From Laetmonice hystrix (taxonomy: Eukaryota), in NCBI GenBank assembly GCA_965235115.1, contig OZ249436.1:23748001-23812000 (forward strand): 64,000 bases of DNA, written 5' to 3'. Each line of letters opens with the position of its first letter. Positions within the stretch are counted from its first letter, which is position 1. Positions 37,472-64,000 of the stretch are shown piece by piece. The notes beneath the pieces are model-generated. The model was given only the letters and a program-made list of their open reading frames with translations. It was not told the origin of the DNA and made no database searches. The translations under genes and the position numbers were made by a program.

Positions 37472-37839
37472 TACCTGTTGTATAATTTGTATGCCTAAAA
37501 TAGTAGGCCTAACCTATATTTTTCACTTCAACTTAGATATTTTTTAACACTACACTAGTTAGTATCGGATAAGTGTGGCCTATACATGGACCTTTGGGTC
37601 CAGGGGGGGGGGTCTAAACCCCCCCCCCCTCCCCAGCCAGCCCCGGTTACGGGCCTGAGTACTAGTTTTAGAAGAAAAGAATGTGGGGTCACCCATCAAT
37701 TTTAAAGGTTACAGCCTGGTAAAAATCCAGCGTCTTGCTGAACATGGTGATGTGGTAACAACGCGCGGCACTGGGTGGCACTTTGCACACTCCCAATTTC
37801 CCTTAAACGCGCGTAGTCAGAGGTTGCAGTACGTGTATA

Positions 37840-39648
37840 ACTAGAGGTAAGATGTTGCAGGGCAACATCAGATCCCATTCACCCGTTTCTGAGGGTTAAA
37901 GGATTTATATTAACTATTTCCTATACATTGGACAAAGTGGCAAAAATATTGCTTCAATAATGTACGAAAAGTAGGTTCCATAGCTCTATTTACTTGCCTG
38001 ATAATATCACTGACATCGTTATGACATCATAGGTCACGTGACTTTAAAAATAATGCTGTGAAACGATAGAGCACATATGACTTCCTATTAGTGCTTCATA
38101 GTAACTATGGCTCTATCTTTAACCATTTACAAGTTATAGCCCTCGGAAAATAAGGTGACCCACTTATGACGTCATAGGTCACGTGACGTGAAAAATAATC
38201 CTGTATAATGAAAGAGCATATATGACTTCCTATTTGTGTTTAATAGTAACTATAGCTCTATCTTCATCCATTTAGAAGTTATAACCCTGAGAAAATCTAG
38301 GTGACCTCCTTATGACGTCATAGGTCACGTGACCTGAAAAATAAAGGTGGCAAACGAAAGGGCATATATGACTTCCTATTGGTGTTTAATAGTAACTATG
38401 GCTCTATCTTCAACCATTTACAAGTAATAGCCCTGGGAAAATATAGGTGACCTCCTTATCACGTCATAGGTCACGTGACCTGAAAAATAAAGGTGGCAAA
38501 GGAAAGGGCATACATGACTTCCCATTGGTGTCTAATAGTAACAATTGCTCTATCTTCAGCCATTTACGAGTTATAGCCCTGGGAAAATATAGGTGGCCTC
38601 TATAACCTATGGCGTCATAGGTCACGTGACCTGAAAAATAAAGGTGTATAACGAAAGAGCATATATGACTTCATATTAGTGTTTAATAGTAACTATAGCT
38701 CTATCTTCATCCATTTAGAAGTTATAACCCTGAGAAAATCTAGGTGACCTCCTTATGACGTCATAGGTCACGTGACCTGAAAAATAAAGGTGACAAACGA
38801 AGGGGCATATATGACTTCCTATTGGTGTTTAATAGTAACTATGGCTCTATCTTCAACCATTTACAAGTTATAGCCCTGGGAAAATATAGGTGGCCTCCTT
38901 ATGACGTCATAGGTCACGTGACCTGAAAAATAAAGGTGGCAAAGGAAAGGGCATACATGACTTCCTATTGGTGTTTAATAGTAACTATGGCTCTATCTTC
39001 AACCATTTACAAGTTATAGCCCTGGGAAAATATAGGTGGCCTCTTTATGACGTCATAGGTCACGTGACCTGAAAAATCAAGGTTTATAATGAAAGACCAT
39101 ATGATTTCCTATACATGTTCTATAGTAACTTTGCCTCTATCTTCCACCGTTGTCGAGTTATTGCCCTATATTGTCTTCAGACCCATTTTTCTCATCTTTG
39201 AGGTCACGTGACTAACTTAATATAGGTCAAATCGACAATTTTCTACCTCCACTTTCATGGCCCATGTAACAAGATGCTCCAGACCGAATTTCATTAAATT
39301 TCCTAAAAAATTAAAAGAGTAGACAGGAATTAACCGTTTTCTAAGGTTTGACCTATAAGCAGCAAAGGTCAAAGGTCAAATTGCATGACGCCATGTTAGG
39401 AGGGCCTTGGCCAATAATTCTGGTATATAAAGTTTTGCAAAAGTCCCAATTTCCTGTGAAAGAGAGGCCAATATATCTGGAACAGTTTTTACGTCATTAC
39501 GTCATGACGTTACGTCATATGACGTCATAACTGATTTGCATGATAGAAAATCACTATACCTATAAGCACACCAAGTTTTATTGAGATATCTTTAAAATTA
39601 ATATCAATATGGGGCATGAGTCTAACTACTACTACTACTACGTGTATA
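37840..39648 (-). mobile_element. HINE body (outermost element of the large nest; head not in window)
   Basis: Tail ACTAG-aggtaa-gatgttgcagggcaacatc-ag-atcccattcacc; 146-bp array ~38020-39160; (ACT)n then gtata|ACTAG of the next element. Confidence 0.8.
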
Positions 39649-41325
39649 ACTAGTCGCCAGGTGCCATGGGCACAGGTATCCCATTCACCTATTGAGGTTA
39701 TCATAGGTCGCGTAACCCAAAAAATATTGTGCCGAAGGAAAGATGACTTCCTTTGAGGGGCCATAACATGAAAACTATTGATTTTAGGGGAGGCATTTCG
39801 GTGTCAGAGACAGCTGACCCATTACCCAATCCAATGGTGTTAAAATAAAAAATTAGGTCAACTTGGCCGCCATCTTGGATTTTTCAAATTCGAGGAAAAT
39901 GGGTCAAGTTTTCCATCCGAACCCCAATGACGAAAACCAGACGTTGATATCTTTAACCGTTTTAGAGATATCAATGATTTTTGGTTGAAAATGATCTAAA
40001 AGGGTCAACTTTGAGGGGCCATAACATGAAAACTATTGATTTTAGGGGAGCCATCTCGGTGTCAGAGACAGCTGACTATTACCCAATCCAATGGTGTTAA
40101 AATCGGAAATTAGGTCAACTTGGCCGCCATCTTGGATTTCTCAAATTCAGGGAAAATGGGTCAAGTTTTCCATCTTAACCCCAATGGCGAAAACCAGACG
40201 TTGATATCTTTAACCGTTTTAGAGATATCAATGATTTTTGGTTGAAAATGACCTAAAAAGGGTCATGGAGCCAGATGGGGTCACGTGACAGCATTTAAAT
40301 AGGGAAATGAAAGGTGATATCAGATGTCCCATGAGTTTAGTTAGTAACAATGCACACATCTGGCTGTTTTTCCAAGTTACAGTCATCTGAAATTACCGAT
40401 GACGTCATAGAGTCAGGTAGAGCCACGTGACCTGAATAAAAATGGTGTCATTTGAAAGGCCATATATGACTTCCTATCTGTCCCCAATAGTAACTATGGG
40501 CCTATCTAGCTCTGTTTCCAAGTTACTGCTAGCTGAAAATATCGATGACGTCATAGGGTCACGTAGGGTCACGTGACCTAAATAAAAATGGTGTCATTTG
40601 AAAGGCCATACATGACTTCCTATCTGTCTTCAATAGTAACCAATGGCCTATCTGGCTCTGTTTCCAAGTTACTGCTAGCTGAAAACACTGATGACGTCAT
40701 GCAGCTATGTAGGGTCACGTGACCTAATTAAAAATGGTTTCATTTGAAAGGCCATCTATGACTTCCTATCTGTCTTCAATAGTAACTATGGGCCTATCTG
40801 GCTCTGTTTCCAAGTTATTACCACATATGTGTCATGAACATGTAAATTGACCCATCTACCAAAATTCAATGGCCCATATCTGGGTCAATATGGGTCAAAT
40901 CGAATTTCTGTTGCGTAACTTTATGAATCCGGCCATGTAGTCTCTCAGGAGTCAATTTCAACCTCATTTCCCTAAAATTCTGGCACCTGACATGATTTTG
41001 TCACATTTTGACCTTTGACCCATACCTCCAGAAGGTCAAAGGTCAGAGGTCAAACTGCCCTCCATAATTTAGCTAGTCACTTGTCCAATAATGATTATGG
41101 CAATAGTTTTTGAAAAAGTCTAATTTACAATAAAATACAGGCCTATATATCTGGAACCGTTTTTACGTCATTACGTCATGACGTTACGTCATATGACGTC
41201 ATGGGTCACACGGCCAACTCAACTTCCCAAGGCCAACCTATGTGCCAAGCTTCATTGAGATATCTTGAAAAATAATACCAATTAGGGGTACAAAGTTAAC
41301 AACTACTACTACTACTACGGGTATA
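39649..41325 (-). mobile_element. HINE body (second level; head not in window)
   Basis: Tail ACTAGtcgccaggtgccatgggcacaggtATCCCATTCACC; two 258-bp and several 146-bp units; (ACT)n then gtata|ACTAG. Confidence 0.8.
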
Positions 41326-41434
41326 ACTAGTGGTAACGTGCCCTGGGCACAGGTATCCCATTCACGTATTGAGGTAATCATAGGTCACGTGACCCAAAAA
41401 ATATAGTTCCAAAGGAAAGATGACTTCCTATTAA

Positions 41435-43590
41435 AATGGGTCAAGTTTTCCATCTTAACCCCAATGGCGAAAACCAGACATTCATATCTTTAACTGTTTT
41501 CGAGATATCAATGATTTTTGGTTGAAAATGACCTAAAAGGGCCAACTTTGAGGGGCCATAACATGAAAACTATTGATTTTAGGGGAGCCATCTCGGTGTC
41601 AGAGACAGCTGACCCATTACCCAATCCAATGGTGTTAAAATAAAAAATTAGGTCAACTTGGCCGCCATCTTGGATTTTTCAAATTCGAGGAAAATGGGTC
41701 AAGTTTTTCATCTTAACCCCAATGGCAAAAACCAGACGTTGATATCTTTAACCGTTTTCGAGATATCAATGATTTTTGGTTGAAAATGACCTAAAAGGGC
41801 CAACTTTGAGGGGCCATAACATGAAAACTATTGATTTTAGGGGAGCCATCTCAGTGTCAGAGACAGCTGACCCATTACCCAATCCAATGGTGTTAAAATC
41901 AAAAATTAGGTCAACTTGGCCGCCATCTTGGATTTTTCAAATTCGAGGAAAATGGGTCAAGTTTTCCATCTTAACCCCAATGGCGAAAAAACCAGACGTT
42001 GATATCTTTAACCGTTTTCGAGATATCACTGATTTTTGGTTGAAAATGACGTAAAAGGGCCAACTTTGAGGGGCCAAAACAATGAAAACTATTGATTTTA
42101 GGGGAGCCATCTCGGTGTCAGAGACAGCTGACCCATTACCCAATCCAATGGTGTTAAAATCAAAAATTAGGTCAACTTGGCCGCCATCTTGGATTTTTCA
42201 AATTCGAGGAAAATGGGTCAAGTTTTCCATCTTAACCCCAATGGCGAAAAAACCAGACGTTGATATCTTTAACCGTTTTCGAGATATCACTGATTTTTGG
42301 TTGAAAATGACGTAAAAGGGCCAACTTTGAGGGGCCAAAACAATGAAAACTATTGATTTTAGGGGAGCCATCTCGGTGTCAGAGACAGCTGACCCATTAC
42401 CCAATCCAATGGTGTTAAAATAAAAAATTAGGTCAACTTGGCCGCCATCTTGGATTTTTCAAATTTGAGGAAAATGGGTCAAGTTTTCCATCCTAACCCC
42501 AATGGCGAAAACCAGACGTTGATATCTTTAACCGTTTTAGAGTTATAAATGATTTTTGGTTGAAAATGACCTAAAAGGGCCAACTTTGAGGGGCCATAAC
42601 ATGAAAACTATTGATTTTAGGGGAGCCATCTCGGTGTCAGAGACAGCTCACCCATTACCCAATCCAATGGTGCTAAAATAAAAAATTAGGTCAACTTGGC
42701 CGCCATCTTGGATTTTTCAAATTCGAGGAAAATGGGTCAAGTTTTCCATCCTAACCCCAATGGCGAAAACCAGACGTTGATATCTTTAACCGTTTTAGAG
42801 GTATCAATGATTTTTGGTTGAAAATGACCTAAAAGGGCCAACTTTGAGGGGCCATAACATGAAAACTATTGACTTTAGGGAAGCCATCTCGGTGTCAGAG
42901 ACAGCTGACCCATTACCTAATCCAATGGTGTTCAAATCAAAAATTAGGTCAACTTGGCCGCCATCTTGGATTTTTCAAATTCGAGGAAAATGGGTCAAGT
43001 TTTCCATCTTAACCCCAATGGCGAAAACCAGACGTTGATATCTTTAACCGTTTTAGAGATATCACTGATTTTTGGTTGAAAATGACCTAAAAGGGCCAAC
43101 TTTGAGGGGCCATAACATGAAAACTATTGATTTTAGGGGAGCCATCTCGGTGTCAGAGACAGCTGACCCATTACCCAATCCAATGGTGTTAAAATAAAAA
43201 ATTAGGTCAACTTGGCCGCCATCTTGGATTTTTCAAATTCAAGGAAAATTGGTCAAGTTTGCCATCTTAACCCCAATGGCGAAAACCAGACGTTGATATC
43301 TTTAACCGTTTTAGAGATATCACTGATTTTTGGTTGAAAATGACCTAAAAGGGCCAACTTTGAGGGGCCATAACATGAAAACTATTGATTTTAGGGGAGC
43401 CATCTCGGTGTCAGAGACACCTGACCCATTACCCAATTCAATGGTGTTAAAATCAAAAATTAGGTCAACTTGGCCGCCATCTTGGATTTTTCAAATTCGA
43501 GGAAAAAGGGTCAAGTTTTCCATCTTAACCCCAATGGCGAAAACCAGACGTTGATATCTTTAACCGTTTTAGAGATATCAATGATTTTGG
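41435..43590. repeat. 258-261-bp tandem array (~8 units)
   Basis: gttgaaaatgacctaaaagggcc at 41521, 41779, 42039 etc.; each unit contains TGGCCGCCATCTTGG. Confidence 0.95.
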
Positions 43591-45065
43591 GTCACATAGG
43601 GTCACGTGACCTAAATAAAAATGGTGTCATTTGAAAGGCCATATATGACTTCCTATCTGTCTCCAATAGTAACTATGGGACTATCTAGCTCTGTTTCCAA
43701 GTTACTGGTAGTTGAAAACACTGATGACGTCATACGGCCATATACGGTCACGTGACCTAATTAAAAATGGTGTTATTTGAAAGGCCATATATAACTTCCT
43801 ATCTGTCCCCAATAGTAACTATGGGCCTATCTAGCTCTGTTTCCAAGTTACTGCTATCTGAAAATATCGATGACGTCATAGGGTCACGTAGGGTCACGTG
43901 ACCTAAATAAAAATGGTGTCATTTGAAAGGCCATACATGACTTCCTACCTGTCTTCAATAGTAACTAAGGGCCTATCTGGCTCTGTTTCCAAGTTACTGC
44001 TAGCTGAAAATACCGATGACGTCATAGGGTCACGTAGGGTCACGTGACCTAAATAAAAATGGTGTCATTTCAAAGGCCATACATGACTTCCTATCTGTCT
44101 TCAATAGTAACTAAGGGCCTATCTGGCTCTGTTTCCAAGTTACTGCTAGCTGAAAATACCGATGACGTCATAGGGTCACGTAGGGTCACGTGACCTAAAT
44201 AAAAATGGTGTCATTTGAAAGGCCATACATGACTTCCTATCTGTCTTCAATAGTAACTAAGGCTTTATCTGCAACCATTTACAAGTTATGACCCTTAGAA
44301 AATCTAGGTGACCTCATTATGACGTCATAGGTCACGTGACCTTAAAAATAAAGGTCTATAATGAAAGATCATATATGACTTCCTATTAGTGTTCAATAGT
44401 AACTATAGCTCTATCTTCAACCATTTACTAGTTATAGCCCTTGGAAAATATAGGTGACCTCCTTATGACGTCATAGGTCACGTGACCTGAAAAAATATAG
44501 TGCCAAACGAAAGAGGACATATGATTTCCTATAGATGTTCTATACTAACTTTAGCTCTATCTCCTATGGTTTCTGAGTTATACCACTTCATGGCATTATG
44601 ACCCAATATTCAGAAGTTTGAGGTCACGTGACTCAGTAAATATAATAAAAATCAAAAAATCCTTTAAGATTCTTAAGGGCATTACTACTGGGCATCTTTT
44701 GGTGAAAGTCTCATCCAAATCGGATAATATTTGAGTGAGGAGAAGGGATTTAAGTGATTTTCACACTTTGACCTTTATTCCATAAAGGTCAAAGGTCAAA
44801 GGTCAAATTTCATGACGCCATGTTAGCAGGGCCTTGGCCAATCATTCTGGTATATAGAGTTTTTCAAAAGTCCCAATTTCCTATAAAAGAGAGGCCAATA
44901 TATCTGGAACCGTTTTTACGTCATTACGTCATGACGTAACGTCATATGACGTCATGGGTCACATGGCCAACTCAACTTGCCATGGTCGACCTATGTGCCA
45001 AGTTTCATTGAGATATCTTGAAAAACAATACCAAAGTTAACGGAACTACTACTACTACGGGAATA

Positions 45066-47381
45066 ACTAGTGGTAACGTGCCCTGGGCACAGGTATCCCA
45101 TTCACGTATTGAGGTAATCATAGGTCACGTGACCCAAAAAATATAGTTCCAAAGGAAAGATGACTTCCTATTAGTGTTTAATAGTGACTATGGCTCTATC
45201 TTGAACCATTTACTAGTTATAGCCCTTGGAAAATATAGATGACCTCCTTGTGACGTCATAGGTCACGTGACTTAAAAAAATAAGGGTGCATAATGAAGGA
45301 GAATATTTGACTTCCTATTAGTGTTTAATAGTAACTATGGCTCTATCTTCAGCCAAGAAGTTATAACCCTTGGTAATTTGAATGACCTGATTATGACGTC
45401 ATAGGTCACGTGACCTAAATAAAAATTATGTCATTTAAAAGGCCATACATAACTTCCTATTCTGTCTTCAATGGTAACTAAGGGCCTATCTGGCTATGTT
45501 TCCAAGTTACTGCTCACTGAAAATACCGATGACGTCATAGGGTCACGTAGGGTTACGTGACCTTAATAAAAATTGTGTCATTTGAAAGGCCATATATGAC
45601 TTCCTATCTCTCTTCAATAGTAACTATGGACCTATCTGGCTGTGCTTCCAAGTTACAGCCAACTTAAAATACTGATGACGTCATAGGGCGACGTAGGGTC
45701 ACGTACGGTCACGTGACCTACTTAAAAATGGTGTCATTTGAAAGGCCATATATGACTTCCTATCCGACTTCAATAGTAACTATGGACCTATCTGGCTCAG
45801 CTTACAAGTTACAGCCATCTTAAAATACCGATGACGTCATAGGGTCACGTAGGGTCACGTGACCTAAATAAAAATGGTGTCACTTGAAAGGCCATACCTG
45901 ACTTCCTATCTGTCCTCAATAGTAACTATGGGCCTATCTGGCTCTGTTTCCAAGTTACTGCTAGCTGAAAACACTGATGACGTCATACAGCCATGTAGGG
46001 TCACGTGACCTAAATAAAAATGGTGTCATTTGAAAGGCCATATATGACTTCCTATCTGTCTCCAATAGTAACTATGGGACTATCTAGCTCTGTTTCCAAG
46101 TTACTGGTAGTTGAAAACACTGATGACGTCATACGGCCATATACGGTCACGTGACCTAATTAAAAATGGTGTTATTTGAAAGGCCATATATAACTTCCTA
46201 TCTGTCCCCAATAGTAACTATGGGCCTATCTAGCTCTGTTTCCAAGTTACTGCTATCTGAAAATATCGATGACGTCATAGGGTCACGTAGGGTCACGTGA
46301 CCTAAATAAAAATGGTGTCATTTGAAAGGCCATACATGACTTCCTATCTGTCTTCAATAGTAACTAAGGGCCTATCTGGCTCTGTTTCCAAGTTACTGCT
46401 AGCTGAAAATACCGATGACGTCATAGCGTCACGTAGGGTCACGTGACCTAAATAAAAATGGTGTCATTTGAAAGGCCATACATGACTTCCTATCTGTCTT
46501 CAATAGTAACTAAGGCTTTATCTGCAACCATTTACAAGTTATGACCCTTAGAAAATCTAGGTGACCTCATTATGACGTCATAGGTCACGTGACCTTAAAA
46601 ATAAAGGTCTATAATGAAAGATCATATATGACTTCCTATTAGTGTTCAATAGTAACTATAGCTCTATCTTCAACCATTTACTAGTTATAGCCCTTGGAAA
46701 ATATAGGTGACCTCCTTATGACGTCATAGGTCACGTGACCTGAAAAAATATAGTGCTAAACGAAAGAGGACATATGATTTCCTATAGATGTTCTATACTA
46801 ACTTTAGCTCTATCTCCTATGGTTTCTGAGTTATACCACTTCATGGCATTATGACCCAATATTCAGAAGTTTGAGGTCACGTGACTCAGTAAATATAATG
46901 AAAATCAAAAAATCCTTTCAGATTCTTAAGGGCATTACTACTGGGCATGTTTTGGTGAAAGTCTCATCCAAATCGGATAATATTTGAGTGAGGAGTAGGG
47001 ATTTAAGTGATTTTCACACTTTGACCTTTATTCCATAAAGGTCAAAGGTCAAAGGTCAAATTTCATAACGCCATGTTAGCAGGGCCTTGGCCAATCATTC
47101 TGGTATATAGAGTTTTTCAAAAGTCCCAATTTCCTATAAAAGAGAGGCCAATATATCTGGAACCGTTTTTACGTCATTACGTCATGACGTAACGTCATAT
47201 GACGTCATGGGTCATATGGTCAACTTACCTTGCCATGGCCAACCTATGTGCCAAGTTTCATTGAGATATCTTGAAAAACAATACCAAAGTTAACGGAACT
47301 ACTACTACTACGGGAATAATAAAAAGGAAGATGAAACCATACAATTTCAAAATCCCATTCCCCCAAGGGGGTGAATGGGAT
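45066..47381 (-). mobile_element. Complete HINE nested in a copy of its own family
   Basis: Tail ACTAGtggtaacgtgccctgggcacaggtATCCCATTCAC; head ending GTGAATGGGAT; ~46000-47315 is nearly identical to ~43590-45065. Confidence 0.85.
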
Positions 47382-47382
47382 A

Positions 47383-50300
47383 ACTAGTGGCCAGGTGCCA
47401 TTGGCACAGGTATCCCATTCACAGATATGATGTAAACAAATTTTGACTGGACTGGATTATGTTAGTTACTATGCTCTATGTTAAGACATCAGGCATCACG
47501 TGATTAGAACAATCGTATTGTCACGTGATAAGGCAAAAAAACAAAGTGGCCGTATCTGACCGCCATCTTGGATTTTTCACATTCAGGTCAAATGGGTTAA
47601 GTTTTCCACCCTAACCCCAATGGTGAAAACCAGACATTGATATCTTTAACCGTTTTAGAGATATCACTGATTTTTGTTTGGAAATGACCTAAAAGGGCCA
47701 ATTTTGAGGGGTCATAACATGGAAACTATAGATTTTAGGAGAGCCATCTCGGTGTCAGAGACAGCTGACCTATTACCCAATCCAATGGTGCTAAAATCAG
47801 AAATTAGGTCAACTTGGCCGCCATCTTGGATTTTTCAAATTCAGTTCATATGGGTCAAATTTTCCATCTTAACCCAATGGTGAAAACCAGACGTTGATAT
47901 CTTTAACCGTTTTAGAGATAGCAATGATTTTTGGTTAAAAATGACCTAAAAGGGTCAACTTTGAGGGGCCATAAGATGAAAACTATTGATTTTAGGAGAG
48001 CCATCTCGGTGTCAGAGACAGCTGACCCATTACCCAATCCAATGGTGTTAAAATCAAACATTAGGTCAACTTGTCCGCCATCTTGGATTTTTCAAAATCA
48101 AGGAAAATGGGTCAAGTTTTCCCTCTTAACCCCAATGGCGAAAACCAGACATTGATATCTTTAACCGTTTTCGAGATATCACTGATTTTTGGTTGAAAAT
48201 GACCTAAAAAGGGTCATGGAGCCAGATGGGGTCACGTGACAGCATTCAAATAGGGAAATGAAAGGTGATATAAGATGTCCCATGAGTTTAATTAGTAACC
48301 ATGCACACATCTGGCTCTTTTACCAAGTTACAGTCATCTGAAATTACCGATGACGTCATAGGGTCAGGTTGAGCCACGTGACCTAAATAAAAATGGTGTC
48401 ATTTGAAAGGCCATATATGACTTCCTATCTGTCCCCAATAGTAACTATGGGCCTATCTGGCTCTGTTTCCAAGTTACTGCTAGCTGAAGATATCGATGAC
48501 GTCATAGGGCCACGTAGGGTCACGTGACCTAATTAAAAATTGAGTCATTTGAAAGGCTATATATGACTTCCTATCAGTCTTCAATAGTAACTATGGGCCT
48601 ATCTGGCTCTGTTTCCAAGTTACTGCTATCTGAAAATACCGATGACGTCATAGGGTCACATAGGGTCACGTGACCTAAATAAAAATGGTGTCATTTGAAA
48701 GGCCATATATGACTTCCTATCTGCCTTCAATAGTAACTATGGGCCTATGTGGCTCTGTTTCCAAGTTACTGCCAGCTGAAAATACTGATGACGTCATACA
48801 GCCATGTAGGGTCACGTGACCTAATTAAAAATGGTGTCATTTGAAAGGCCATATATGACTTCCTATCTGTCTTCAATAGTAACTATGGCCCTATCTGGCT
48901 CTGCTTCCAAGTTACAGCCATCTTAAAATACCGATGACGTCATAGGGCCACGTAGGGTCACGTGACCTAATTAAAAATGGTGTGATTTGAAAGGCCATAT
49001 ATGACTTCCTATCTGTCCCCAATAGCGTTGTTGCGGAATGACGTCACCACGCATCTCATTACTACATTAACATAATAATGAGCGTAAGTTGCCCGGATGT
49101 TCGGACAAACTTTGGAGGGAAATGACTGCTGATAGAGTAGCCTACACTGCATCCCACTGATTTCACTAAGCGAAAACGACGTTCCTGGCGCAAAGTTTGC
49201 TCATACATCAGTCCCAGACAACAGTGTAGTCCAACTCAGGAGGTGGCTGAAGTATAGAGGGTTACCAGTTCCCGAGAGGAAGGCCGATTTGGTCAAGAGG
49301 TAGGTGAAAACTTTGACAGTCGTTCGTTTGACATGTGTCTGGGAACAAAAAAAATGAAACCCCAAAAGTGGCCTAACTCAAGAAATACAAAGATACCTAA
49401 GACAAGACACATTGTGTAAGGTGTAGTTCAGTGTACTGTGAGTAGAGATCAGCAGTTTGAAGGAAATTTAACCAGACATGGGAGTAGACCCAAGGTCGAA
49501 GGTGCTCTCGTGCAGTCGGCTCCCGTCCCGGCATCACCGGGGTGTTGACCCGTGTGACTCCGGGCCGGGAGCTGTGCAGTCCGTGGAGGTGGATGGCCAC
49601 ATCTAGTGGCACGGGAGGATGTATGATTTGGGTCTGCCGACGGGCCTTTGAGAATAACCCTTGTTTGATTTTTAAACTATTTATTTTTGTCTTTTGATAT
49701 TTTCAGATGTGAAGACTGCGAAAGATGGAGATACTTTTCGTATCGTGAACAGAGTGTATCATCCCAGCCCTAATAAAATATTATAGCCCTAAATAACTGC
49801 TTGGAATAAAATGTTATTTTTTGTGTAGACTCTAGCTGTGATGGTGTTGGCTCTTTCAGAAATAAATATTTAAAAAGTAGGCCTATTGTTTGGTGTTGGA
49901 CTTTTGAATGTTTGTTGGGCCTTGACTATATATATGATTTTATAAATATGTTTTGAGAATCTGTATAGGTATATAGGGGCATGTTGGTAGGCTGTTTCCC
50001 TGGGTTGACACTCTGGCCGGAGCCTCGGCAAGGTTGAGCCGTGACCCGGGAGGTCAACCATGCTGATGATCTTCCAGTAACGGTATATACTTGTTCTGGC
50101 GTGGCAGTAGCTGGTGCTGGGTCAGGATGTAGCTGTGTGGGACCTTTTCCCACCTACAAAGTGCTTAGAGCAGATATAAGTGTCCTTTTTAATACTTTCT
50201 ATATTAAAGGTGAAATTCTCTCGACCGTAAGCACGCGTCCATCGCCATGCTTTCTCGGCCTGCCGACTCGGCTTTGGGAATGGGATGAAAACAAAGTTTG

Positions 50301-51608: not shown

Positions 51609-51673
51609 AATAAAAAGGAAGATGAAACCATACAATTTCAAAATCCCATTCCCCCAAGGGGGTGAATGGGATA

Positions 51674-52681: not shown

Positions 52682-54171
52682 ACTAGACATCATGATTGCA
52701 AGCAATACACTAATCCCATTTCCTCCGGACGTCATGAGGAAAACGCCAGGTGCCATTCGTATGCTATCAAGTAACTAAAGTGGCCCATAGCCTTACCACT
52801 CTGCCATCTTGGTTTTACTGTCAGTCCTGGAACCTTTGTCCCAAATCTCAGAAAGGGTAATTGACAGAGGTCAAGTTATGGGAAAATTATCTCTGAAAAC
52901 AATGTATGTCAAAATATTTCATAACTATGATTTTGACAAGGCCTCATATCCTGCCTGGTGGTGTTTTGGTATTCAGAGTCTGAAAAATGAGAAGAAAAAA
53001 AATTCCGTATTTGGTGGGATTCGAACCCATGATCTCCGGCCTTTAGGTCGGGCATGCTACCCACTCAGCTATTGAGACTCACGGGTATAGAGGTACCTAG
53101 GTCCTATTTGAAATAGGTGGATGACGTCATGACACAAAAGAGTGACGTCACAGAAAAAAGTTTGCATAAATCTAGCTCAGCATCCCATCCTCTTTAAGCC
53201 TATTAAGTTTCGTTAAGATCTGTTAAAAACTGCCAGAGATATGACCGATTTCTGGTAAACTTTATCTTTGAGAACCATGTATGTCAAAACATTTCATAAC
53301 TATGACTGTGACAAGGCCTCATATCCTGCCTGGTGGTGTTTTGGTTTTCAGAGTGTGACAAATGAGAAAAAAGTTTTTGTACTTGGTGGGATTCGAACCG
53401 ATGATCTCCAGCCTTTAGGTCGGGCATGCTACCCACTCAGCTATTGAGACTCACGGGTATAGAGGTACCTGGGTCCTATTTGAAATAGGTGGATGACTTC
53501 ATGACACAAAAGAGTGACGTCACAGAAAAAAGTTTGCATAAATCTAGCTCAGCATCCCATCCTCTTTAAGCCTACCAAGTTTCATTAAGATCTGTTAAAA
53601 ACTGCCAGAGATATGACCGATTTCTGGTAAACTGACCAAAGAATCAAACTTTGATGTCACGTGATTCAGTGAAAAAAGGTCTGATCGCTAAACAACGGCC
53701 CCACAATTTTAAGCTATCCACCAGGAACATCCAGAAGTGGTTTGGTCAAGATTTTCAAAAAAATGAGAGAGTAGTAAGGATTTAACCGTATTGTGACCTT
53801 TGACCCGAATCTCAGAAAGGGTAATGATCCAAGGTCAAGTTATGGAACAAGTATCTTAGAGAACCATCCACGAAGAGGATCTATAACCAATATTTCTCCA
53901 AGTAACAGTAGTTTTGTGTTGGGAGTTGATAAATTGATGCTCCATGTGACGTGTTTGAGACGTCATAAAACCAAGACATGACGTCGCATGAAGTCCTGCT
54001 TCATATGCACAGATCTTCATCCCATGATGAACCCTCCCTGCAAGTTTCAACCTGCTATCTTAAATAGTGACCGAGATATACACTTTGTCTTACAACAGGA
54101 ATAATAATAATAATAGTGTAGACGAAACCATACAAAATCAAAATCCCATTTCCCCGTCAGGGAAATGGGAT
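52682..54171 (-). mobile_element. Complete HINE related to 30306-32141, with a ~373-bp duplication carrying two tRNA-like cassettes
   Basis: Tail subTIR atcccatttcc matches head atcccatttccccgtcagggaaatgggat; - strand gtctcaatagctgagtgggtagcatg...gggttcgaatccc at ~53004-53077 and ~53378-53450. Confidence 0.85.
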
Positions 54172-55187
54172 AACTAGAAACACTGATTGCTGAAGCAATA
54201 CAGGGATCCCATCCCCCTGGTTATCATCACTTGTCAACACGTTGTGAACCCTGATGCAGTGCACACTGGGAAACTGTCGTGCCAAGCCACTTCTCAGATT
54301 CCATAGCATGAAAACTATTGATTTTAGAGAAGCCATCTTGGTGTCACAGACAGTTGACCTATTACAAAATCTTGGATTGGTCTATTTGAATGCAATTACA
54401 AAATATCCTTTAGTAATCAGTACCAGTTCAATCCTGTAATCACATGTCAGAATTGCGTGGCGATGGTCAAGAGTGTTCGACTCGCATCGGAGAGGTCCGG
54501 GGATCAATCCCGGTACTCGGCATGTTTTTCACTTTTTTTATTTTTCCCCCCTAATTTTTAAAAATAGTCACGTGACCTAAAAAAATTATATAATAAAGAG
54601 CATATATGATTTCCTATTTATGTCCAATAGTAACCAAGGCTCCATCTTTCACCGTTTAGAAGTTACAGCCAATTGTTTCTGAAAATGGCCATGACCCCAA
54701 CTTCAATGCCACGTGGTACCCTTAAAATAGTTCACAGCGCTTTATCATAAAGAAGCCCATTGAAGATCTCCATGGAGATTTCCTGAAATCAATTTGGGGT
54801 CGATTTGACCAAAAATGTGGGGCGTGAAACCATTTTGTCACTTTTTGACATATGACCTACATCTCAAGAAGGTTAAAGGTCAGGGGTCAAATGTAGTAAC
54901 AAAGTTATGGGCACTTAAGTGATAAGGTCCCCGATATGAATAAACTTTGTTCTGCTCCTCCAGGGACTCTAGAAATAAGCTATTTTCCCCAACTTTTGAT
55001 TACGTCATAACTCTATGACGGTACGTCATATGACGTCATGCATATAAAAATGAGTTGCGATGCCCATGAGCAAGAGTCCCACCAAGTTTCATTACGATAC
55101 CTTAAGAAACAACTGAGAAATCGATCATTGTTAACTACTACTACGGGTACTACTACTACTACTACAACTACAACAGGTATAATAATA

Positions 55188-58100
55188 ACTAGATACGTTG
55201 TGGAGTACCACAATGGATCCCATCCCCGGGGTGTCCCATGTAACATGTTCTGAATAGGGATAACTATGGTACTATCTTGCACCCGTGACGACTTATGAGC
55301 CTTAGAAGATGGAAGTTACGTCATTATGACCTTATGCTACGTCATAAATATTGATCTCAATGGACTTCCTATTCATGTTCAAAAATAACTATAGGTGTAT
55401 TTAGCACCGTTTACTAGTTACAGGCTTCTACCAATCCTTAGAAGGGCTCAGTTACGTCATAAGGATGTAATAGATCACACAACAGAATAAATCTTGGTGT
55501 CAATTGAAAGAACATAATGAGGACTTCCTGTTTATATTCAATACTAACTATGGGTCTAACTCCTACCATTTACAAGTTAAAACCCTGAGAAAATATCGAT
55601 GACATCGTTATGTCATGGGTCACGTGACCTAAGAAATAATGATGCCAAACGAAAGAGTATACATGACTTCCTATTCGTGTTCAATAGTAACTATGGGTCT
55701 AACTTCAAGCATTAACAAGTTATATCCCTTAGAAAATATCGATGACATCTTTACGACGTCACAGGTCACGTGACCTTAAGGATGACGATACCAAGTGATG
55801 GCAAGTTATAGCCCTCACAAAATATAGGTTCACTGGCTGTGGTAATCAGTACCAGTTCAATCCAGTATTAGCTTGTCAGATGGCGTAGCACTGGCGATAA
55901 GTGTCTTGACTCACATGCTATGGGTCGCCGGTTCAATCCCAGGCCGAGTCACCTATTTTTTTTTACTTCTACCGGAAGGGTCCCGCGTTCAATCCCAGGC
56001 CGAGTCACGTTTCTTTTTCTTTTTGTTTTTTCCCTCTAATTTTTAAAAATGGTCACGTGACCTGAAAAAAAAAAATATCATAAAAGAGCATAATGACTTC
56101 TTATCTGTGTTTAATAGTAACCAATGCCAAATCTGGCACCGTTTACAAGTTCTAGAAAATTGACAATTTTTCGAAATTTCAAAGTCACGTGATTCAGCGA
56201 ATATTAGTCAAATCGCTTATCTTTTGATGATTTGAGACAAGCTCATGTTAGAGAGTCCTTCTGCCTAATATTGTCGAATTTCACCAAAAAATGAAGAAGG
56301 AGTAGCGATTTAAGAGATTTGTGACTGAGGACCCAGTTCTCCCAAAGTTCAAGGTCAAATGACAAATGAAGGGTCCATGTTAGACTAGATCCTTGCCTGA
56401 TTAAAACGCCATGATGGGGTTTGGAAATTCCCAATATGAACGTCATGACGTGACGTCATACGTCACGTCACGTGATATGTCACAACTCATTGTCTGACCA
56501 GTCCTTGTCATGGTCAAGATGTGTGCCAAATTTGATTGAGATATCTTGAAAACTGACTGAGATAGACGCCACTGTTTACTACTACTACTACTACTACTAC
56601 TACGACGCAAAGACTAGCTCGACTGATTGCTAAAGCAATACACGGATCCCTTCCCCTAACTTGTTTGGTGAGGGGAGAGTAAGGCGACGTGAGAAATCTT
56701 AGTGCCAATTGAAAGAGCAAGTGGCCAAATCCTGGCAACTGAAAGAGCATCTATGAGTTCCTATTCGGGTTCAATAGTAACCATGATCGTATCTAGCACC
56801 GTTTAGGAGTTACAGGCCCCTGAAAATCCTTAGAAAATGGCAATGACGTCATTATGACGTCATACGTGATGATAGGTCAAAAAGGTTGGTGGCATTCGAA
56901 AGAGCATATATGACTTCCTATTCATGTTCAATAGTAACCATGGCTCTATCTTACACCGTTTCAGAGTTACCGCCATTTGTTTCTCAAAAATGGCTATGAC
57001 CCAATTTCGATGTCACATGGTATGCTAAAAATAGTGCACAGCCCTTAGTCTGATCCCGGGGATCTGGGAAACCCCATTGAGATTCCCTGGTATCAATTTG
57101 GGCTCGATTTGTCAAAAATTGTTGGAGGAGAGGCGAATAGTCACATTTTGAGCTGTGACCTACATTTCAAGAAGGTCAAAGGTCAGAGGTCAAATTGATG
57201 AATAAAATTATTCCCTCTCAAGTGGCAAGCTAAGTGCTTTGAATGAATTTTCTCTAACTGATCATGGGACTGGTACAATGAGACACAATGAGGTACTTTC
57301 CAAAACACCAAATTACGTCATTACGTCACGTCATATGACGTAAATCTTGGTGTTATTTGAAAGAGCATCTATGAGATCCTATTCGTGTTCAATAGTAACT
57401 ATGACCCTATCTAGCACAGTTTAAGAGTTATAGGCCTCTGAAAATGCCAATGACGTCATTATGACGGTAAACGTCACATGACGTCATAAATCTTGGTGTC
57501 AATTGAAAGAGCATATATGACTTCCTATTCATGTTCAATAGTAACCATGGCTCTATTTTACACGGTTTCAGAGTTACAGCCATTTGTTTCGCAAAAATGG
57601 CTATGACCCAATTTCGATGTCACGTGGTATGCTAAAAATAGGGCACAACACCTAGTCTGATCCCGGGCCTCTGGGGAATCCTATGGAGATTCCCTGGTAT
57701 GAATTTGGGCTCGATTTGTCAAAAATTGTGAGAGGAGTATTGAAATAGTCACATTTTGACCTGTAACCTAGATCTCAAGAAAGTCAAGGGTCAGAGGTCA
57801 AATTGATAAATAAAATAATTCCCCCTCGAGAGGCAAGCTGGGTGCTATGAATGAATTTTCTCTAACTGATCACGGGACTGGTACAATGTGGTACAATGAG
57901 GTACTTCCCAAAACATCAAATTACGTCATGACGTCAGGTCATATGACGTAAATGTTGGTGTCATTTGAAAGAGGATCTATGAGTTCCTATTCGTGTTTAA
58001 TAGTAACTATGGTCCTATCTAGCACCGTTTAGGAGTTACAGACCTCTAAAAATCCTTAGAAAATGTGAATGACGTCACTAACGTCATAGTTCATAGGTAA

Positions 58101-60343
58101 AAATGTTGGTGTATCTATGACTTACTATTCATGTTCAGTAGTAACCATGGCTCTATCTTAGACCGTTTCAGAGTTAGTCATTTGTTTCTCAAAAATGGCT
58201 ATGACCCAAATTCAATGTCACATGCCATTTCTCTAGTTTCAAAGTTTAGCACCAGGTCGCAGCACGCCTCGGCAATATCCCGGGTCAGGGGCTGCTGTGG
58301 GAGGAAGGGGGTCCCCGATATGCTAGTCCCAATATGCGGCAGGTAGGGGGTCCCTCATATTTAATAGGCCTATTGAGTGAGGAAGTTCTAGTCCCAATAA
58401 ATATGGGGAAGGTAGGGTGTCCCTGATATTTAGCCGACATATTGATATGTGACCATCCCTGGCCCAGATATTCTCAATTCAATACAATACAATATGTTTA
58501 TTCACAACCTCGATGGAGGCAAAGGAACAGGGTCAGGGATTGTATAGTATAGTAGCACTGCTCACTCCATCTGCCGCCGCCAGGGCCCGGCCCCCTAGCG
58601 TGAGGACAGTGTGTAGTCGAGACGTGCTGCTACCTGGTGTCAAACTTCGCCCCCCCCCCACGGTTGATTGTGTGCTAACGAGATGGGATTTTATTTCTCA
58701 CTCCAGTCATTTCCTTAGCCAAAACGCAGCCATACTTTTCCAAACGTTACACACAAGGAGCTATAAATGTTTAATCTATACATCGACTTTCAAGGCATAA
58801 GTCTACATTAAATATTTACAAAGACAGGCATGAGTAGCAATTCAAAGTAGTAGCAGCAGGTAACGTGATAGCTCTTCACAAGAGTCTATGCTTGATGTGC
58901 GAGAGGTCTAGCGTTCGATTCCCCATCAAGTCATTTGCTGTTTTCGTTTTGATGTTTTTTTTCGACTGAATTTGAAAAATATTATGTTTCTCCCCTTGAC
59001 AATTGCAAGTCGTTCGGCTACAGATAATTTACAGCTATATTTCACGTTTAATGACGAAATATACAGCATTACGCCACTGTCTGCAGTGTGGACTAGTATG
59101 GAGAACGCCATTGCCAACCGGCATTGGATTTAACCAAAGATCTATGAAAATAGCTTCGGTCTTTACATGGCGAGTTCCATTCCGAGACTTGGAATCTTCT
59201 CTTCAAAGTTGCCTGACATTGAGCTAAATATGTCCCTGAAGTACTCCCCTATTTATAGATAGAAACATTAGATACTTATTCATACAGAGGCCGGTCGGCT
59301 CAGTGCCTACAGTCGGCCCCTTCCAGCGGACAACGAGCGGTGACCCGACGTCACTCACGAAAGAGGTTTCTAGGTCACTCGATCAGTGGTCAAATTGCCT
59401 GTCTCTCTTTACGACCTTCTCTTATATAATTGATCTCCGTGTTGTTAATTATATATTTTGCCAATTGAAATTTATAATATCTTAAAGTAGACAGTTTAAA
59501 GTCCACACCGTGTAAATATTAAAACGCTGAGCTTATTGTCCCGTAGTTGAGAAGTGCCCCAAAGTAAAGAAGAGATCACGTTGCAGATGACGTTGTAGAT
59601 GACGTCACAGGTCACGTGGCACCAAAAATATGGTACCTAATTAAAGTAGACATAAACCTTTATGAGGTTCATTTAAAATTATGGCTCTATCTCAAATCAT
59701 TCATGAGTTACAGCACAAAATCTTCCAAATGACCCAAGTCAAGCTCAAGTTCAAAACTTTCAGGTCACGTGGTTCAGCGAAAATAGGTCAAATCGCTTAT
59801 CCGCCTAGGAATCTGGTTGAGCTGTCCCTAGAGAGTGCCTGTGCGACATATTGTCAAGATTTATCCAAAATTGGGGAAGAAGTAATGATTAAACCGGTTT
59901 GCGAGCTAGGGACCAGGTATGTCTAAGTTCAAAGGTCAAAGGTCAAATGAAGGGTCAGTCTTATGCAGCACCCTTGCCCGACTAAAACGCCTTGACGAGT
60001 TTTGGAAATTCCCAAGATGAGGTTCAAAAATGGGCTAAATGTACAAAACACGTTTCACGTCATGACGTCATGACGTGACGTTACGTGACGTCATGGCGCA
60101 CCATGAGATCAGAGTTTGTCATCGTCAAGACGTAGCCCAAGTTTCATTGAGATATCTTCAAAAATGACTGAGATATACGTATAGGTTTACGACTACTACG
60201 ACTACTACTACAGGCATAAAAATAAGGAAGACGAAACCAGACAATTTCAAGATCCCTTCCCCTATCGGGGGAAGGGATAAATAATAATAGGGAAGACGAA
60301 ACCGTACAATCTGAAGATCCCATCCCCCTGTAGGGGATGGGAT
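55188..60343 (-). mobile_element. HINE (body 55188-56612; head inferred at ~60288-60343)
   Basis: Tail ACTAGatacg-ttgtggagtaccacaa-tggATCCCATCCCC; tRNA-like cassette at ~55882-55952; (ACT)n before the next tail. Confidence 0.7.
56613..60278 (-). mobile_element. HINE family B, complete copy
   Basis: Tail subTIR atcccttcccct matches head atcccttcccctatcgggggaagggat; collinear with 5778-8854. Confidence 0.85.
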
Positions 60344-60427
60344 AATAATAATAATAGGGAAGACGAAACCACACAATTTCAAAATTCCATCCCCCACTTG
60401 GGGGATGGGATAATAATAATAATAATA

Positions 60428-63400
60428 ACTAGCCCGACTGATTGCTAAAGCAATACAGGGATCCCTTCCCCTGACGAGGAACAATGAAGCAATAATAAAA
60501 TAATAATGATAACGAGGCAATAGGTGTTGCTAGGCAACACCAGATCCCATTTCCCATTTATGTACATGACGTGCACCTAGCCATGACGTGTACAACTACA
60601 TGACGTGTACCTAGCCATGACGTGTACCTAGCCAAAACCAGACATGGCGATTAGTATGGCTATAACAATGGCACAAAAGGCATTGGTGTATTATGACGTC
60701 ATTATGACGTTATACGTCACACGACGTGATAAGTCTTGGTGGCAACTGAAAGAGCATCTATGAGTTCCTATTCGGGTTCAATAGTAACTATGATCGTATC
60801 TAGCATCGTTTAGGAGTTACAGGCCTCTGAAAATCCTTAGAAAGTGGCAATGACGTCATTATAACGTCATACGTGATGATAGGTCAAAAAGGTTGGTGGC
60901 ATTCGAAAGAGCATATATATGACTTCCTATTCATGTTCAATAGTAACCATGGCTCTATCTTACACCGTTTCAGAGTTACCGCCATTTGTTTCTCAAAAAT
61001 GGCTATGACCCAATTTCGATGTCACATGGTATGCTAAAAATAGTGCACAGCCCTTAGTCTGATCCCGGGGATCTGGGAAACCCCATGGAGATTCCCTGGT
61101 ATAAATTTGGGCTCGATTTGTCAAAAATTGTTGGAGTTCAGGCGAATTAGTAACATTTTGAGCTGTGACCTAGATTTCAAGAAGGTCAAAGGTCAGAGGT
61201 CAAATTGATGAATAAAATTATTCCCTCTCAAGTGGCAAGCTAAGTGCTATGAATGAATTTTCTCTGATCATGGGACTGGTAAAATGAGGCACAATGAGGT
61301 ACTTTCCAAAACACCAAATTACGTCATGACGTCACGTCATATGACGTAAATCTTGGTGTCATTTGAAAGAGCATCTATGAGATCCTATTCGTGTTCAATA
61401 GTACCTATGACCCTATCTAGCACAGTTTAAGAGTTATAGGCCTCTGAAAATGCCAATGACGTCATTATGACGTTATACGTCACATGACGTCATAAATCCT
61501 GGTGTCAATTGAAAGAGCATATATGACTTCCTATTCATGTTCAATAGTAACCATGGCTCTATCTTAAACGGTTTCAGAGTTACAGCCATTTGTTTCTCAA
61601 AAATGGCTATGACCCAATTTCGATGTCACGTGGTATGCTAAAAATAGGGCACAACACCTAGTCTGATCCCGGGCCTCTGGGGAATCCTATGGAGATTCCC
61701 TGGTATCAATTTGGGCTCGATTTGTCAAAAATTGTGAGAGGAGTATCGAAATAGTCACATTTTGACCTGTAACCTAGATCTCAAGAAGGTCAAGGGTCAG
61801 AGGTCAAATTGATAAATAAAATGATTCCCCCTCGAGAGGCAAGCTGGGTGCTATGAATGAATTTTCTCTAACTGATCATGGGACTGGTACAATGTGGTAC
61901 AATGAGGTACTTGCCAAAGCATCAAATAACGTCATGACGTCAGGTCATATGACGTAAATGTTGGTGTCATTTGAAAGAGCATCTATGAGTTCCTATTCGT
62001 GTTTAATAGTAGGCCTAATTATGGTCCTATCTAGCACCGTTTACAGACCACTGAAAATCCTTAGAAAATGTGAATGACGTCACTATGACGTCATAGTTTA
62101 TACGTCACGATAGGTAAAAATGTTGGTGTCAATTGCAAGAGTATTTAAGACTTACTATTCATGTTGAGTAGTAACCATGGCTCTATAATACCGTTTCAGA
62201 GTTACAGTCATTTGTTTCTCAAAAATGGCTATGACCCAAATTCAATGTCACATGCCATTTCTCTTGTTTCAAAGTTTAGCACCTGGTCGCACCCCCCCCC
62301 CCCCCCCCCCTGGCAATATCCCGGGTCATGGGCTGCCACATATCGCCATGTGGGAGGAAGGGGGTCCCCGATAAAATATAATATTTAGCCGACATATTGA
62401 TATGTGACCATCCCTGGCCCAGATATTCTCCATCCAATACAATACAATATGTTTATTCACAACCTCGATGGAGGCAAAGGAACAGGGTCAGGGATTGTAT
62501 CTTATAGTAGCACTGCTCACTCCATTTGCCACCGCCAGGGCCCAGCCCCCTAGCGTGAGGACAGTGTATAGTCGAGACGTGCTGCTACCTGGTGTCAAAC
62601 TTCGCCCCCCCCCCCCCCCCCCCACGGTTGATTGTGTGCTAACAAGATGGGTTTTTGATTTCTTACTCTAGCCATTTCCTTAGCCAAAACGCAGCCATAC
62701 TTTTTAAAACGTTACACACAAGAAGCTATAAATGTTTAATCTATACATCGACTTTCAAAGCAAAAGTCTACATTAAATATTTACAAAGACAGGCAGCAGT
62801 AGCAATTCAAAGCCATAGCATTAAGCAGAAAGTCATAGCTCTTCAGAAAAGTATATGCTTGATGTGCGACAGGTCTGGCGTTCGATTCCCCATCAAGTCA
62901 TTTGCTGTTTTCGTTTTGATGTTGTTTTTCGACTGAATTTGAAAAATATTATGTTTCTCCCCTTTACAATTGCCAGTCATTCGGCTACAGATAATTTACA
63001 GCTATATTTCACGTTTAATGACGAAATATACAGCATACGCCACTGTCTGCAGTGTGGACTTACTATGGAGAACGCCATTGGATTTAACTGAGTTTTGTTA
63101 GTAAATAGCTTCGGTCTTCACATGGCGAGTTCCATTCCGAGACTTGGAATCTCCTCTTCAAAGTTGCCTGACATTGAGCTAAATATCTACTTGAAGTACT
63201 CCCCATAGTTTTAGGCAGAAATATTAGATACTTATTAATACAGAGGGCGATAGGCTCAGCGTCCACAGTCGGCCCATCACGCGGACACCAAGCGAGGCCC
63301 CGACATCACTCACGAAACCAGGTTTCTAGGTCAATCGATCAGTGGTCAAATTGCCTGTCTCTCTTCACGACCTTCTCTTATATAATTGATCTCCGTATTG

Positions 63401-64000
63401 TTAATTATACATTTTGCCAATTGAAATTTATATTATCTTAAAGTAGACAGTTTAAAGTCCACACCGTGTAAATATTAAAACGCTGAGCTTATTGTCCTGT
63501 AGTTGAGACGTGCCCCAAATTAAGAAAGAGATGACGTTGTAGATGACGTTGTAGATGACGTCACAAGTCACGTGGCACAAAAAATATGGTACCTAATTAA
63601 AGTAGACATAAAACTTTCTAAGGTTCATTAAGAATTATGGCTCTGTCTCAAATCATTCAAGAGTTACAGCACAGAATCTTCGAAATGACCTAAGTCAAGC
63701 CCAAGTTCAAAACTTTCAGGTCACGTGGTTCAGCGAAAATAGGTCAAATCGCTTATCCACCAAGGAATCTGTTGGAGCTGTCCCTAGAGAGTGCCTCTGC
63801 GAAATATTGTCAAGAATTATCCAAAAATGGGGAAGAAGTAATGATTTAACCGATTTACGAGCTAGGGACCAGGTCTCTCTAAGTTCAAAGGTCAAAGGTC
63901 AAATGAAGGGTCAGACTTATGCAGCACCCTTGCCCGACTAAAATGCCAAGACGGATTTTCGAAATTCCCAAGATGAGGTTCAAAAATGAGCTTTAATGTA
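60428..64000 (-). mobile_element. HINE family B copy running off the window
   Basis: Tail and body nearly identical to 5778 onward; 64000 corresponds to about 8610. Confidence 0.85.

Follow-up and report, generated by a model that had tools for sequence, protein, structure and literature searches.

The window analyzed here, 64,000 nucleotides of Laetmonice hystrix DNA (23748001-23812000 of contig OZ249436.1, called C1 below, in a 627-Mb assembly of 35 contigs), holds part of a nest of non-autonomous elements of the Helentron type (HINEs). Elements of the nest sit in a short A/T tract near the 5' ends of other elements, always in the orientation of the host, and their ends pair like balanced brackets. 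That the region is such a nest, made of several related families all lying on the - strand, is in our judgment very probable. For the analysis, 60 kb of flanking sequence on each side of the window was added, for a total of 184 kb; positions are in window coordinates, negative upstream of the window and above 64000 downstream of it. Reading the + strand, a tail is ACTAG followed by a short hairpin and an ATCCC-type subterminal inverted repeat (subTIR) of 11-12 nt, and a head consists of a ~27-nt leader and then a hairpin, the 3' arm of which ends in GGGAT and reverse-complements the tail 11-mer. Head hairpins being palindromic, head orientation was assigned by the leader motif. The tail is the 3' end of an element and the head its 5' end, a polarity confirmed by a copy encoding Rep, helicase and endonuclease, discussed below, in which the frame reads away from the microsatellite and toward CTAG.

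The original prediction, made from the window's sequence, had listed eleven + strand tails and seven heads. A motif search returns all eleven tails exactly (37840, 39649, 41326, 45066, 47383, 51674, 52682, 54173, 55188, 56613 and 60428), and the seven heads are recovered as hairpins ending in GGGAT (47381, 51608, 51672, 54171, 60278, 60343 and 60411). Over the whole span of the nest, 37841-86761, 26 tails and 26 heads form one balanced word, (((()())(()((()))())((()))()(((())())(()(())()())))), and the depth of six that had been proposed is the depth of this word. When the brackets are closed last-in-first-out, 26 of 26 pairs agree with no mismatch in the 11-nt subTIR. Four elements left open at the end of the window had been expected to close downstream in a set order, and in the fetched DNA the heads occur in that order. 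Tail 60428 is closed by head 64256 (ATCCCTTCCCC), tail 51674 by head 64318 (ATCCCATCCCC) and, after further balanced pairs, tails 39649 and 37840 by heads 86692 and 86761 (ATCCCATTCAC). The nest as originally described therefore stands, but its size had been put too small, since the outermost pair reaches from 37841 to 86761. The pairs of tails 55188 and 54173, at first thought to be indistinguishable, are now resolved by hairpin and leader classes. Tail 55188, with hairpin GTGGAGTACCAC, pairs with head 60343, with lead ACAATCTGAAG, and the same combination of tail and head is found ~1.44 kb apart in four solo copies (C1:1917440/1915998, 8825143/8826589, 12112670/12111228 and 12132067/12130625). 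Tail 54173 pairs with head 60411, a head type found in five of five pairs of that tail class.

How readily would such agreement arise by chance? When the heads are redealt among the head slots the mean is 11.6 matches (standard deviation 2.0, maximum 21), and none of 100,000 shuffles reaches 26, so that the pairing is far better than shuffled order. First-in-first-out pairing gives 17 matches of 26. The class of the tail hairpin and the class of the head loop are nearly one-to-one, with a mutual information of 2.49 versus a maximum of 1.67 in 20,000 shuffles, none of which reaches the observed value. A class mapping trained on the 13 guest-free elements predicts the head class of 11 of 13 hosts, with none wrong and two without a verdict. 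Under the strictest null, in which order is shuffled inside the head stacks only, the observed order recurs in 420 of 200,000 trials.

The elements of the nest that fall within the window, all on the - strand, are arranged as follows. The outermost a-type 3' end (37840-37883; CTAG, hairpin and subTIR ATCCCATTCAC) has its head, as noted above, beyond the window at 86761, and a second a-type 3' end (39649-39689), with its head likewise beyond the window at 86692, lies within the pad of the outermost element. An a-type host follows at 41326-51673 (tail 41326-41366, head 51616-51673), with two sibling guests in its pad: an a-type element at 45066-47382, itself guest-free with intact pad gggaataataaaaagg, and a second a-type element at 47383-51609 that adjoins the first through the junction GGGAT-AA-CTAG. 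The (AAT)n pad of this host survives as a left remnant at 45058-45066 and a right remnant at 51609-51616, which when joined make an intact pad with no duplication. A b-type host with three guests in its pad occupies the rest of the window from 51674 (tail 51674-51718; head ending at 64318, beyond the window). Inside it are a guest-free c-type guest with subTIR ATCCCATTTCC (52682-54172), a b-type host at nesting level 4 (54173-60412), a b'-type host at level 5 (55188-60344; head lead ACAATCTGAAG), a d-type guest at level 6, the deepest in the window (56613-60279; subTIR ATCCCTTCCCC), and another d-type guest from 60428, with its head ending at 64256, beyond the window. The heads d, b' and b stand as a three-head stack at 60225-60412, in an order reversed relative to the tails.

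Some details of the families in the nest deserve mention. The four d-family copies seen (5778-8855, 56613-60279, 60428-64256 and 74231-77454) are all guests, and none is a host; the d-family pad is degenerate (cataaaaataagg) and not a clean (AAT)n tract. In an a' family, at 70966-86563, copies with the pad variant ACTACTTGTATAATAAT... are guest-free in four of four cases, and copies with ACTACAGGAATAATAA... are hosts in three of four. The flank ahead of the outermost tail (37828-37840, agtacgtgtataa) looks like the end of an a-type body, and at 96365-96422 there is an a-type head without a partner; the two may be what is left of a seventh, outer host without a body.

On its own strand each element has the order 5' module, (ATT)n pad, (AGT)n tract, tandem-repeat body, 3' subTIR, hairpin and CTAG(T), the 5' module of ~55 nt being composed of the subTIR, a complementary inverted repeat that makes the hairpin, and the conserved leader. 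The published HINE layout, as given in the available text of two reports, has a subTIR, an inverted repeat, a microsatellite, tandem repeats, a 3' palindrome and a TT target (PMC4067079, PMC7492417). The elements studied here carry the structural traits of this list. Subterminal inverted repeats (11-13 nt in HINEs) are present at both ends, the 11-nt subTIRs being identical in 26 of 26 pairs; every head has the 5' hairpin formed by an inverted repeat complementary to the subTIR, with arms of 9-14 nt and at most one mismatch; and 26 of 26 nest tails pass a filter for the 3' palindrome, set as a stem of 5 nt or longer separating CTAG from the subTIR. (ACT)n and (AAT)n tracts precede each head, and the bodies contain arrays of 146-, 258- and 372-bp units (one body, for instance, has 7.9 copies of a 146-bp unit at 38011-39167, a feature without strand). 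An autonomous partner that encodes Rep, PIF1 and an apurinic-type endonuclease and has a matching 3' end was found for the e family, the family that this comparison covered.

Where in a host do the guests sit? All 25 guests, in all 13 hosts, occupy the A/T-only tract that separates the (ACT)n tract from the head leader, every one of them in the orientation of its host and none within a body. Sibling guests are spaced by AA or by (AAT)n. Insertion across families, in one orientation, into a single shared AAT tract near the host 5' end, as originally proposed, is thus borne out by the sequence. The flanks of a host, when joined, give the pad of guest-free copies (for example gggaata joined to ataaaaagg), provided that two As at each junction are counted with the guest; read on the element strand, this would correspond to integration between two Ts without duplication, as published for Helentrons. 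Most 3' flanks start with TT, and the exact cut is ambiguous because the target is itself a repeat. A guest takes the orientation of its host because (ATT)n has TT on one strand only. TT sites are abundant in the nest (5192 on the same strand and 4155 on the opposite strand), with only 266 of them within generously drawn pad zones.

The tail and head motifs are far above chance across the genome. The tail pattern has 6632 matches versus 682 in a reversed control, and the head pattern 5298 versus 96. Because the head pattern recovers 53 of 65 curated heads (82%) and the tail pattern 45 of 45 curated tails, the corrected totals of ~6,350 heads and ~5,950 tails (control subtracted from the tails) are about equal. 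Tails that adjoin a head through GGGAT-AA-CTAG number 750 versus none in the control, and tails with an AATAA flank 2073 versus 2; tails of one or the other kind make up ~47% of the ~5,950. The b family was sampled as the first 100 tails by position, classified by eye, of which 6 were false and 94 real. Among the 94, 32 lie in a host pad, 8 at a head (40 at pad or head) and 54 elsewhere, and 19 of these last have one of four recurrent flanks. A bracket parse of C1:0-18.4 Mb gives 50 pairs within 60 kb, 48 of them family-matched and two mismatched. The mixed-family nests in that interval, at 5.32, 5.36, 9.87 and 17.35 Mb and as a duplicated pair at 2.49/2.52 Mb, are all last-in-first-out. In the duplicated pair a b'[b] nest is present twice, at C1:2491059-2494856 and 2517682-2521479, 26.6 kb apart and with identical motifs, and it looks like a segmental duplication. 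Abutments of head and tail, and AATAA-flanked tails, concentrate at C1:23.4-24.2 Mb, which holds the window, and at 25.6-26.1 Mb.

Several repeated contexts are also seen. The commonest a-type tail (CTAGTTGCGAGG...) has an identical 3' flank of ~70 nt at six of nine sampled places, namely C1:1902707, 2933045, 9236833, 18271723 and 23152650 and window position 28729 on the - strand. The common flank implies that this tail lies inside a larger repeated unit, and that its copies are not independent insertions; many such tails have no head nearby. Tails of the b family with one identical flank (TTATGATGAAATATAG...) recur at a spacing of ~3.47 kb at C1:42762408-42769441, 70702973-70716809 and 71028424-71038695, and look like part of a tandem repeat whose unit includes a HINE end.

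The original prediction had called for an autonomous element with Rep, helicase and endonuclease and with the same subTIRs. The 3' end of such an element is present in the e family, the one family compared, but its own 5' head does not lie next to it. A Helentron at C1:23911040-23925212, 99 kb downstream of the window and inside a nest, has frames of 955 and 1737 aa with one in-frame stop between them, and the 1737-aa frame has the domains DUF6570, Helitron_like_N (Rep), PIF1 and Exo_endo_phos. An e-type 3' end lies ~660 nt past the frame; its 5' side, which comes immediately after the 3' end of an e-family HINE, retains an (AGT)n tract and the remnant of a pad. The HINE and the Helentron are 86-88% identical over 126 nt of the 3' end, and 74-76% identical over ~780 nt of the 5'-proximal body. 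At C1:23909527-23925210 a single e-type head precedes two e-type tails, and the Helentron copy is probably part of a composite, with one head and two tails, in the pad of a b-type host. A second Helentron, on contig C7, has a single 2769-aa frame with Rep, PIF1 and endonuclease. It was considered as a partner of these HINEs and set aside, since at 72.6% identity to the C1 copy, and without ATCCC-type ends nearby, it belongs to a different family and cannot be linked to them. Genome-wide there are 125 Helitron_like_N matches, most of them in open frames of 2,000-3,634 aa. Some of the matches are evenly spaced, for example four at ~28-kb intervals at C5:29.45-29.53 Mb. The matches suggest that many Helentrons have been recently active or recently duplicated.

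What process would build such nests? We infer that the integrations are enzymatic Helentron insertions. A new copy would integrate between two Ts of a resident pad, with no target duplication, and the TT asymmetry of (ATT)n would admit it only in the host's orientation. Each entry would move the host's 5' module away from the host body, so that heads would stack in the reverse order of tails and the result would be a balanced bracket word. A host and its guests would still be bounded by valid ends, and hence could be copied together. Extra heads would result if a transposing unit ran from an outer head to an inner tail, and extra tails if it ran from an inner head to an outer tail. The adjacent 5' module may bind the transposase, or its palindrome may unwind the AT-rich tract. 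In the fullest form of this proposal, Helentrons of this genome, autonomous or not, carry next to their 5' end a docking tract that attracts further copies; docking is a main mode of integration, accounting for ~40% of 3' ends; and the resident 5' module guides the choice of target. We regard the fullest form as evenly poised between right and wrong.

Is the pad chosen for anything beyond its ATT sequence? Of tails flanked by (ATT)2 or longer, 15 of 17 are in a HINE context, whereas among (AAT)4-or-longer tracts of C1:0-9.9 Mb only 9 of 41 are HINE pads before a head. A preference for the pad over other AAT tracts, as the original prediction would have it, is thus seen as a ~27-fold excess, though one derived from small hand counts in different samples and inflated by composites. 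The excess suggests that the neighboring 5' module contributes to target choice beyond the ATT sequence, and presumably the pad is selected for more than that sequence. Another account dispenses with any role for the 5' module, and attributes the nests to a preference for T-rich or (ATT)n DNA together with local hopping and the copying of composites, the pad being then a microsatellite carried by chance. Several observations are as this account would have them. The target is always A/T-only, and the position within the tract is variable; insertions outside pads have T-rich flanks too, nearly all starting with TT; the TT asymmetry of (ATT)n by itself gives orientation; and 20 of 39 head-tail junction matches lie within 40 kb of a Rep match, by a hand count, versus ~1.6% expected, as local hopping would produce. 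Transposons that target microsatellites are known (PMC4486113, in its available text). The account does not predict the pad excess, however, nor the several pad insertions with hardly any ATT on the side of the body, for example CTAG-TT-CCCGTAGTAG, and we think it possible but doubtful.

A different account makes the head stacks 3'-truncated tandem copies or slipped 65-nt units, produced by errors of rolling-circle replication or by unequal recombination, with headless bodies as 5'-truncated copies. Homogeneous stacks of heads without tails do exist (3131-3324, 32665-33024 and C1:23905659-23905920), Tandem Repeats Finder (TRF) scores the 60216-60424 stack as a 65-nt tandem repeat, and tandem arrays of truncated Helitrons are in the literature (PMC7492417 and PMC8268682, as far as their available text goes). 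For the mixed-family nest, however, this account is already contradicted. A single template cannot give mixed-family stacks that exactly reverse the order of the tails, as they do in 26 of 26 pairs and in five nests elsewhere; unequal crossing over between host and guest would, by reasoning, unbalance the brackets; and the host flanks rejoin to an intact pad. We hold it to be improbable. Least credible of all is that the nest is an artefact of assembly, for the region is indeed highly repetitive, and contigs from public runs on 44001-64000 are short, with depth in the thousands, and bridge nothing, but random mis-joins would not yield a balanced, family-matched word across 49 kb, and the grammar recurs at many loci of the contig and in the 750 genome-wide abutments of head and tail.

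A number of observations weigh against an ordered nest built by docking, and they are best considered together. Heads and tails do not balance everywhere, and strict one-to-one pairing is ruled out as a universal rule by orphan heads and extra tails. In the 184 kb the + strand has 57 heads versus 45 tails, at least 13 of the heads being orphans, and such heads occur often beyond the limits 37.8-86.8 kb. The parse of C1:0-18.4 Mb leaves 14 of 64 heads without a tail and 25 of 75 tails unclosed, an imbalance that is due in part to the 82% sensitivity of the head pattern. At the Helentron locus, strict last-in-first-out pairing would join an e-type tail to a b-type head; the C1 Helentron's own 5' head was not found beside the body, and the next open heads upstream are b-type. 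Around the C7 Helentron, neither an ATCCC-type head nor an ATCCC-type tail occurs in the 3.9 kb upstream or the 7.7 kb downstream. The contrast between pads and generic (AAT)n tracts draws, as said, on small hand counts from two samples. Many junctions may not be independent, since composites are copied and the same junction of guest and host is found at scattered loci. No empty-site allele or polymorphism was seen, the public-run contigs on 44001-64000 being short, and consequently no insertion event has been directly observed. Those contigs, ~100-330 nt long at very high depth on 44001-64000, come from five public runs that cover parts of 51001-61000; they bridge no junctions and show no empty pads, and the joints that they do contain (for example 56520 to 60349, with 19 letters between) are off the tail and head boundaries and probably represent other copies. 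Finally, as a gauge of whether inner elements are younger than outer ones, substitutions relative to the family majority were counted, and they point both ways. Host 51675 has 12, fewer than its guest 54174, which has 26. Elsewhere the outer hosts 70966 and 78881 have 40 substitutions, as against 9-14, and 64330 has 32, as against 10-11; the consensus in these comparisons came from 5-8 local copies of mixed subfamilies.

How are the unbalanced ends to be understood? A six-head g-type stack at 2938-3325 (- strand) has two g-type tails available upstream, at -1437 and -284, leaving four heads, at 3131-3324, as orphans. Three e-type heads at 8994-9185 (- strand) have two e-type tails open upstream of the window. 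A five-head stack at 32665-33024 (- strand) is orphan, with no co-oriented tails within reach, and four b-type orphan heads are stacked at C1:23905659-23905920. Orphan heads and extra tails would fit the re-mobilization of parts of nests, and we do not take them as a refutation of nesting. Composites are in fact seen as copies. Identity is 99.8% between hosts 70966 and 78881 and 99.9% between their guests, 77547 and 80094; upstream, hosts -10830 and -7889 share 98.2% identity, and the guests inside them, -9415 and -6469, share 99.7%. Because composites of host and guest are copied as units, the order of brackets is a relative one, and not all of its events took place at this locus. The idea of an ordered record of insertion history accordingly survives for the relative order of events, with the restriction that part of the record is inherited.

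To what extent is such a system already known? The description of HINE/DINE-1 elements by Thomas, Vadnagara and Pritham (2014, PMC4067079) agrees with the present elements in the subTIRs, 5' inverted repeat, microsatellite, tandem repeats and 3' palindrome, in insertion at TT or T-rich sites without duplication, and in a partner with Rep, helicase and endonuclease. Its available text does not, however, mention insertions that target the element's own microsatellite, nests in a common orientation or stacks of 5' modules, and uses "nested" for an inverted repeat inside a subTIR. The Cg_HINE elements of the Pacific oyster (Vojvoda Zeljko et al. 2020, PMC7492417) likewise have a left flank with 5' subTIR, inverted repeat and microsatellite, a satellite-like center, a right flank of ~60 bp with 3' subTIR and palindrome, and a TT target without duplication, and that paper also notes insertions into repetitive regions. 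Unlike the L. hystrix elements, with which they were compared by layout, Cg_HINEs have microsatellites mostly of 4-nt motifs, and the term "nested" is absent from the available text of the report.

Multiple termini of the kind reported in maize and Fusarium are found here as well, in the orphan head stacks and in the e-type unit of one head and two tails, and here too an origin by re-mobilization seems the likely one. In the FoHeli elements of Fusarium (Chellapan et al. 2016, PMC5148889, as far as the available text goes), 5' terminal pieces of <200 bp are repeated before a single 3' end, and the authors propose that self-insertion comes first and that the stretch from the outer 5' end up to the first 3' end then transposes, the explanation that we adopt for orphan head stacks. 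FoHeli differs in that the scheme is a hypothesis with one observed nested case, and neither a fixed tract nor deep nests nor ordered pairing is reported in that text. Maize Helitrons insert near and inside each other, and re-mobilization of nested intermediates from an inner 5' end is proposed to produce units in which several 3' ends are present (Dong et al. 2011, PMC3288121), which match the Helentron locus with its one e-type head and two e-type tails. The maize elements, in contrast, are canonical, with an AT target, and the sections available describe no defined site in a host and no orientation rule based on a microsatellite. "Shuffled" loci of Helitrons and satellites in oysters (PMC12628747, PMC8268682, PMC11136912; available text) appear to be of the same kind, with truncated or "tandemized" parts inside elements and one-ended arrays, but those papers explain them by insertion, deletion, tandemization, recombination or truncation. 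On the bracket reading the missing end is displaced, not lost. Nested long terminal repeat (LTR) retrotransposons (PMC6911290, PMC3014933; available text) offer a further parallel, in that nesting order serves as a relative clock and some families target regions of other elements; they are of another class and mechanism, without a single fixed site or enforced orientation.

The original prediction had suggested that ordered self-targeting across families was undescribed. Nested Helitrons and multiple termini are in print (PMC3288121 and PMC5148889, in the text available), and to that degree the claim must be cut back. Our literature search, whose scope lay outside subscription journals and the 2021 "shuffled loci" paper of Satovic-Vuksic and Plohl, found no fixed intra-element landing tract, no tract-derived orientation rule and no cross-family, family-matched bracket order, so that novelty seems to lie in the fixed landing tract and in an order that can be read.

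The pairing of left and right ends over long distances is a known source of error in the annotation of Helitrons and Helentrons. Bracket parsing recovers the element, its family and its order of arrival at loci previously called scrambled, and would improve such annotation. It also explains satellite-like arrays that apparently have one transposon end, and the order offers a relative clock of family activity. If the 5' module does help to select the target, these elements would be eukaryotic rolling-circle transposons with a defined, self-carried integration site, and target selection would be directly testable. If the docking reading is true, landing in a pad would provide a safe haven, sparing host genes while both elements stay mobile, clusters would be stratigraphic records of family activity, and one could predict as by-products the stacks of 5' modules, the satellite arrays bounded on one side only and the "shuffled loci" of bivalves.

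The remainder of the window has further elements that the original prediction did not mention. Nests of the same type fill 1-9185 and continue upstream. Two additional tails with the + strand motif, at 3338 and 5778, are found there, and a b-type host at 3338-8916 (- strand) has a d-type guest at 5778-8855. Four other tail motifs, at 32142, 30304, 28729 and 24724, are on the - strand and mark elements of the opposite orientation (24724-32142, + strand), with a head at 30276-30335. The window has no frame of at least 250 aa, and ARAGORN found no tRNA gene in it. Short tRNA-like segments occur within element bodies at 51930-52010, 53010-53080, 53370-53440 and 55840-56000, with ends of the form ...ggttcgaatcc or ...gatcaatccc.

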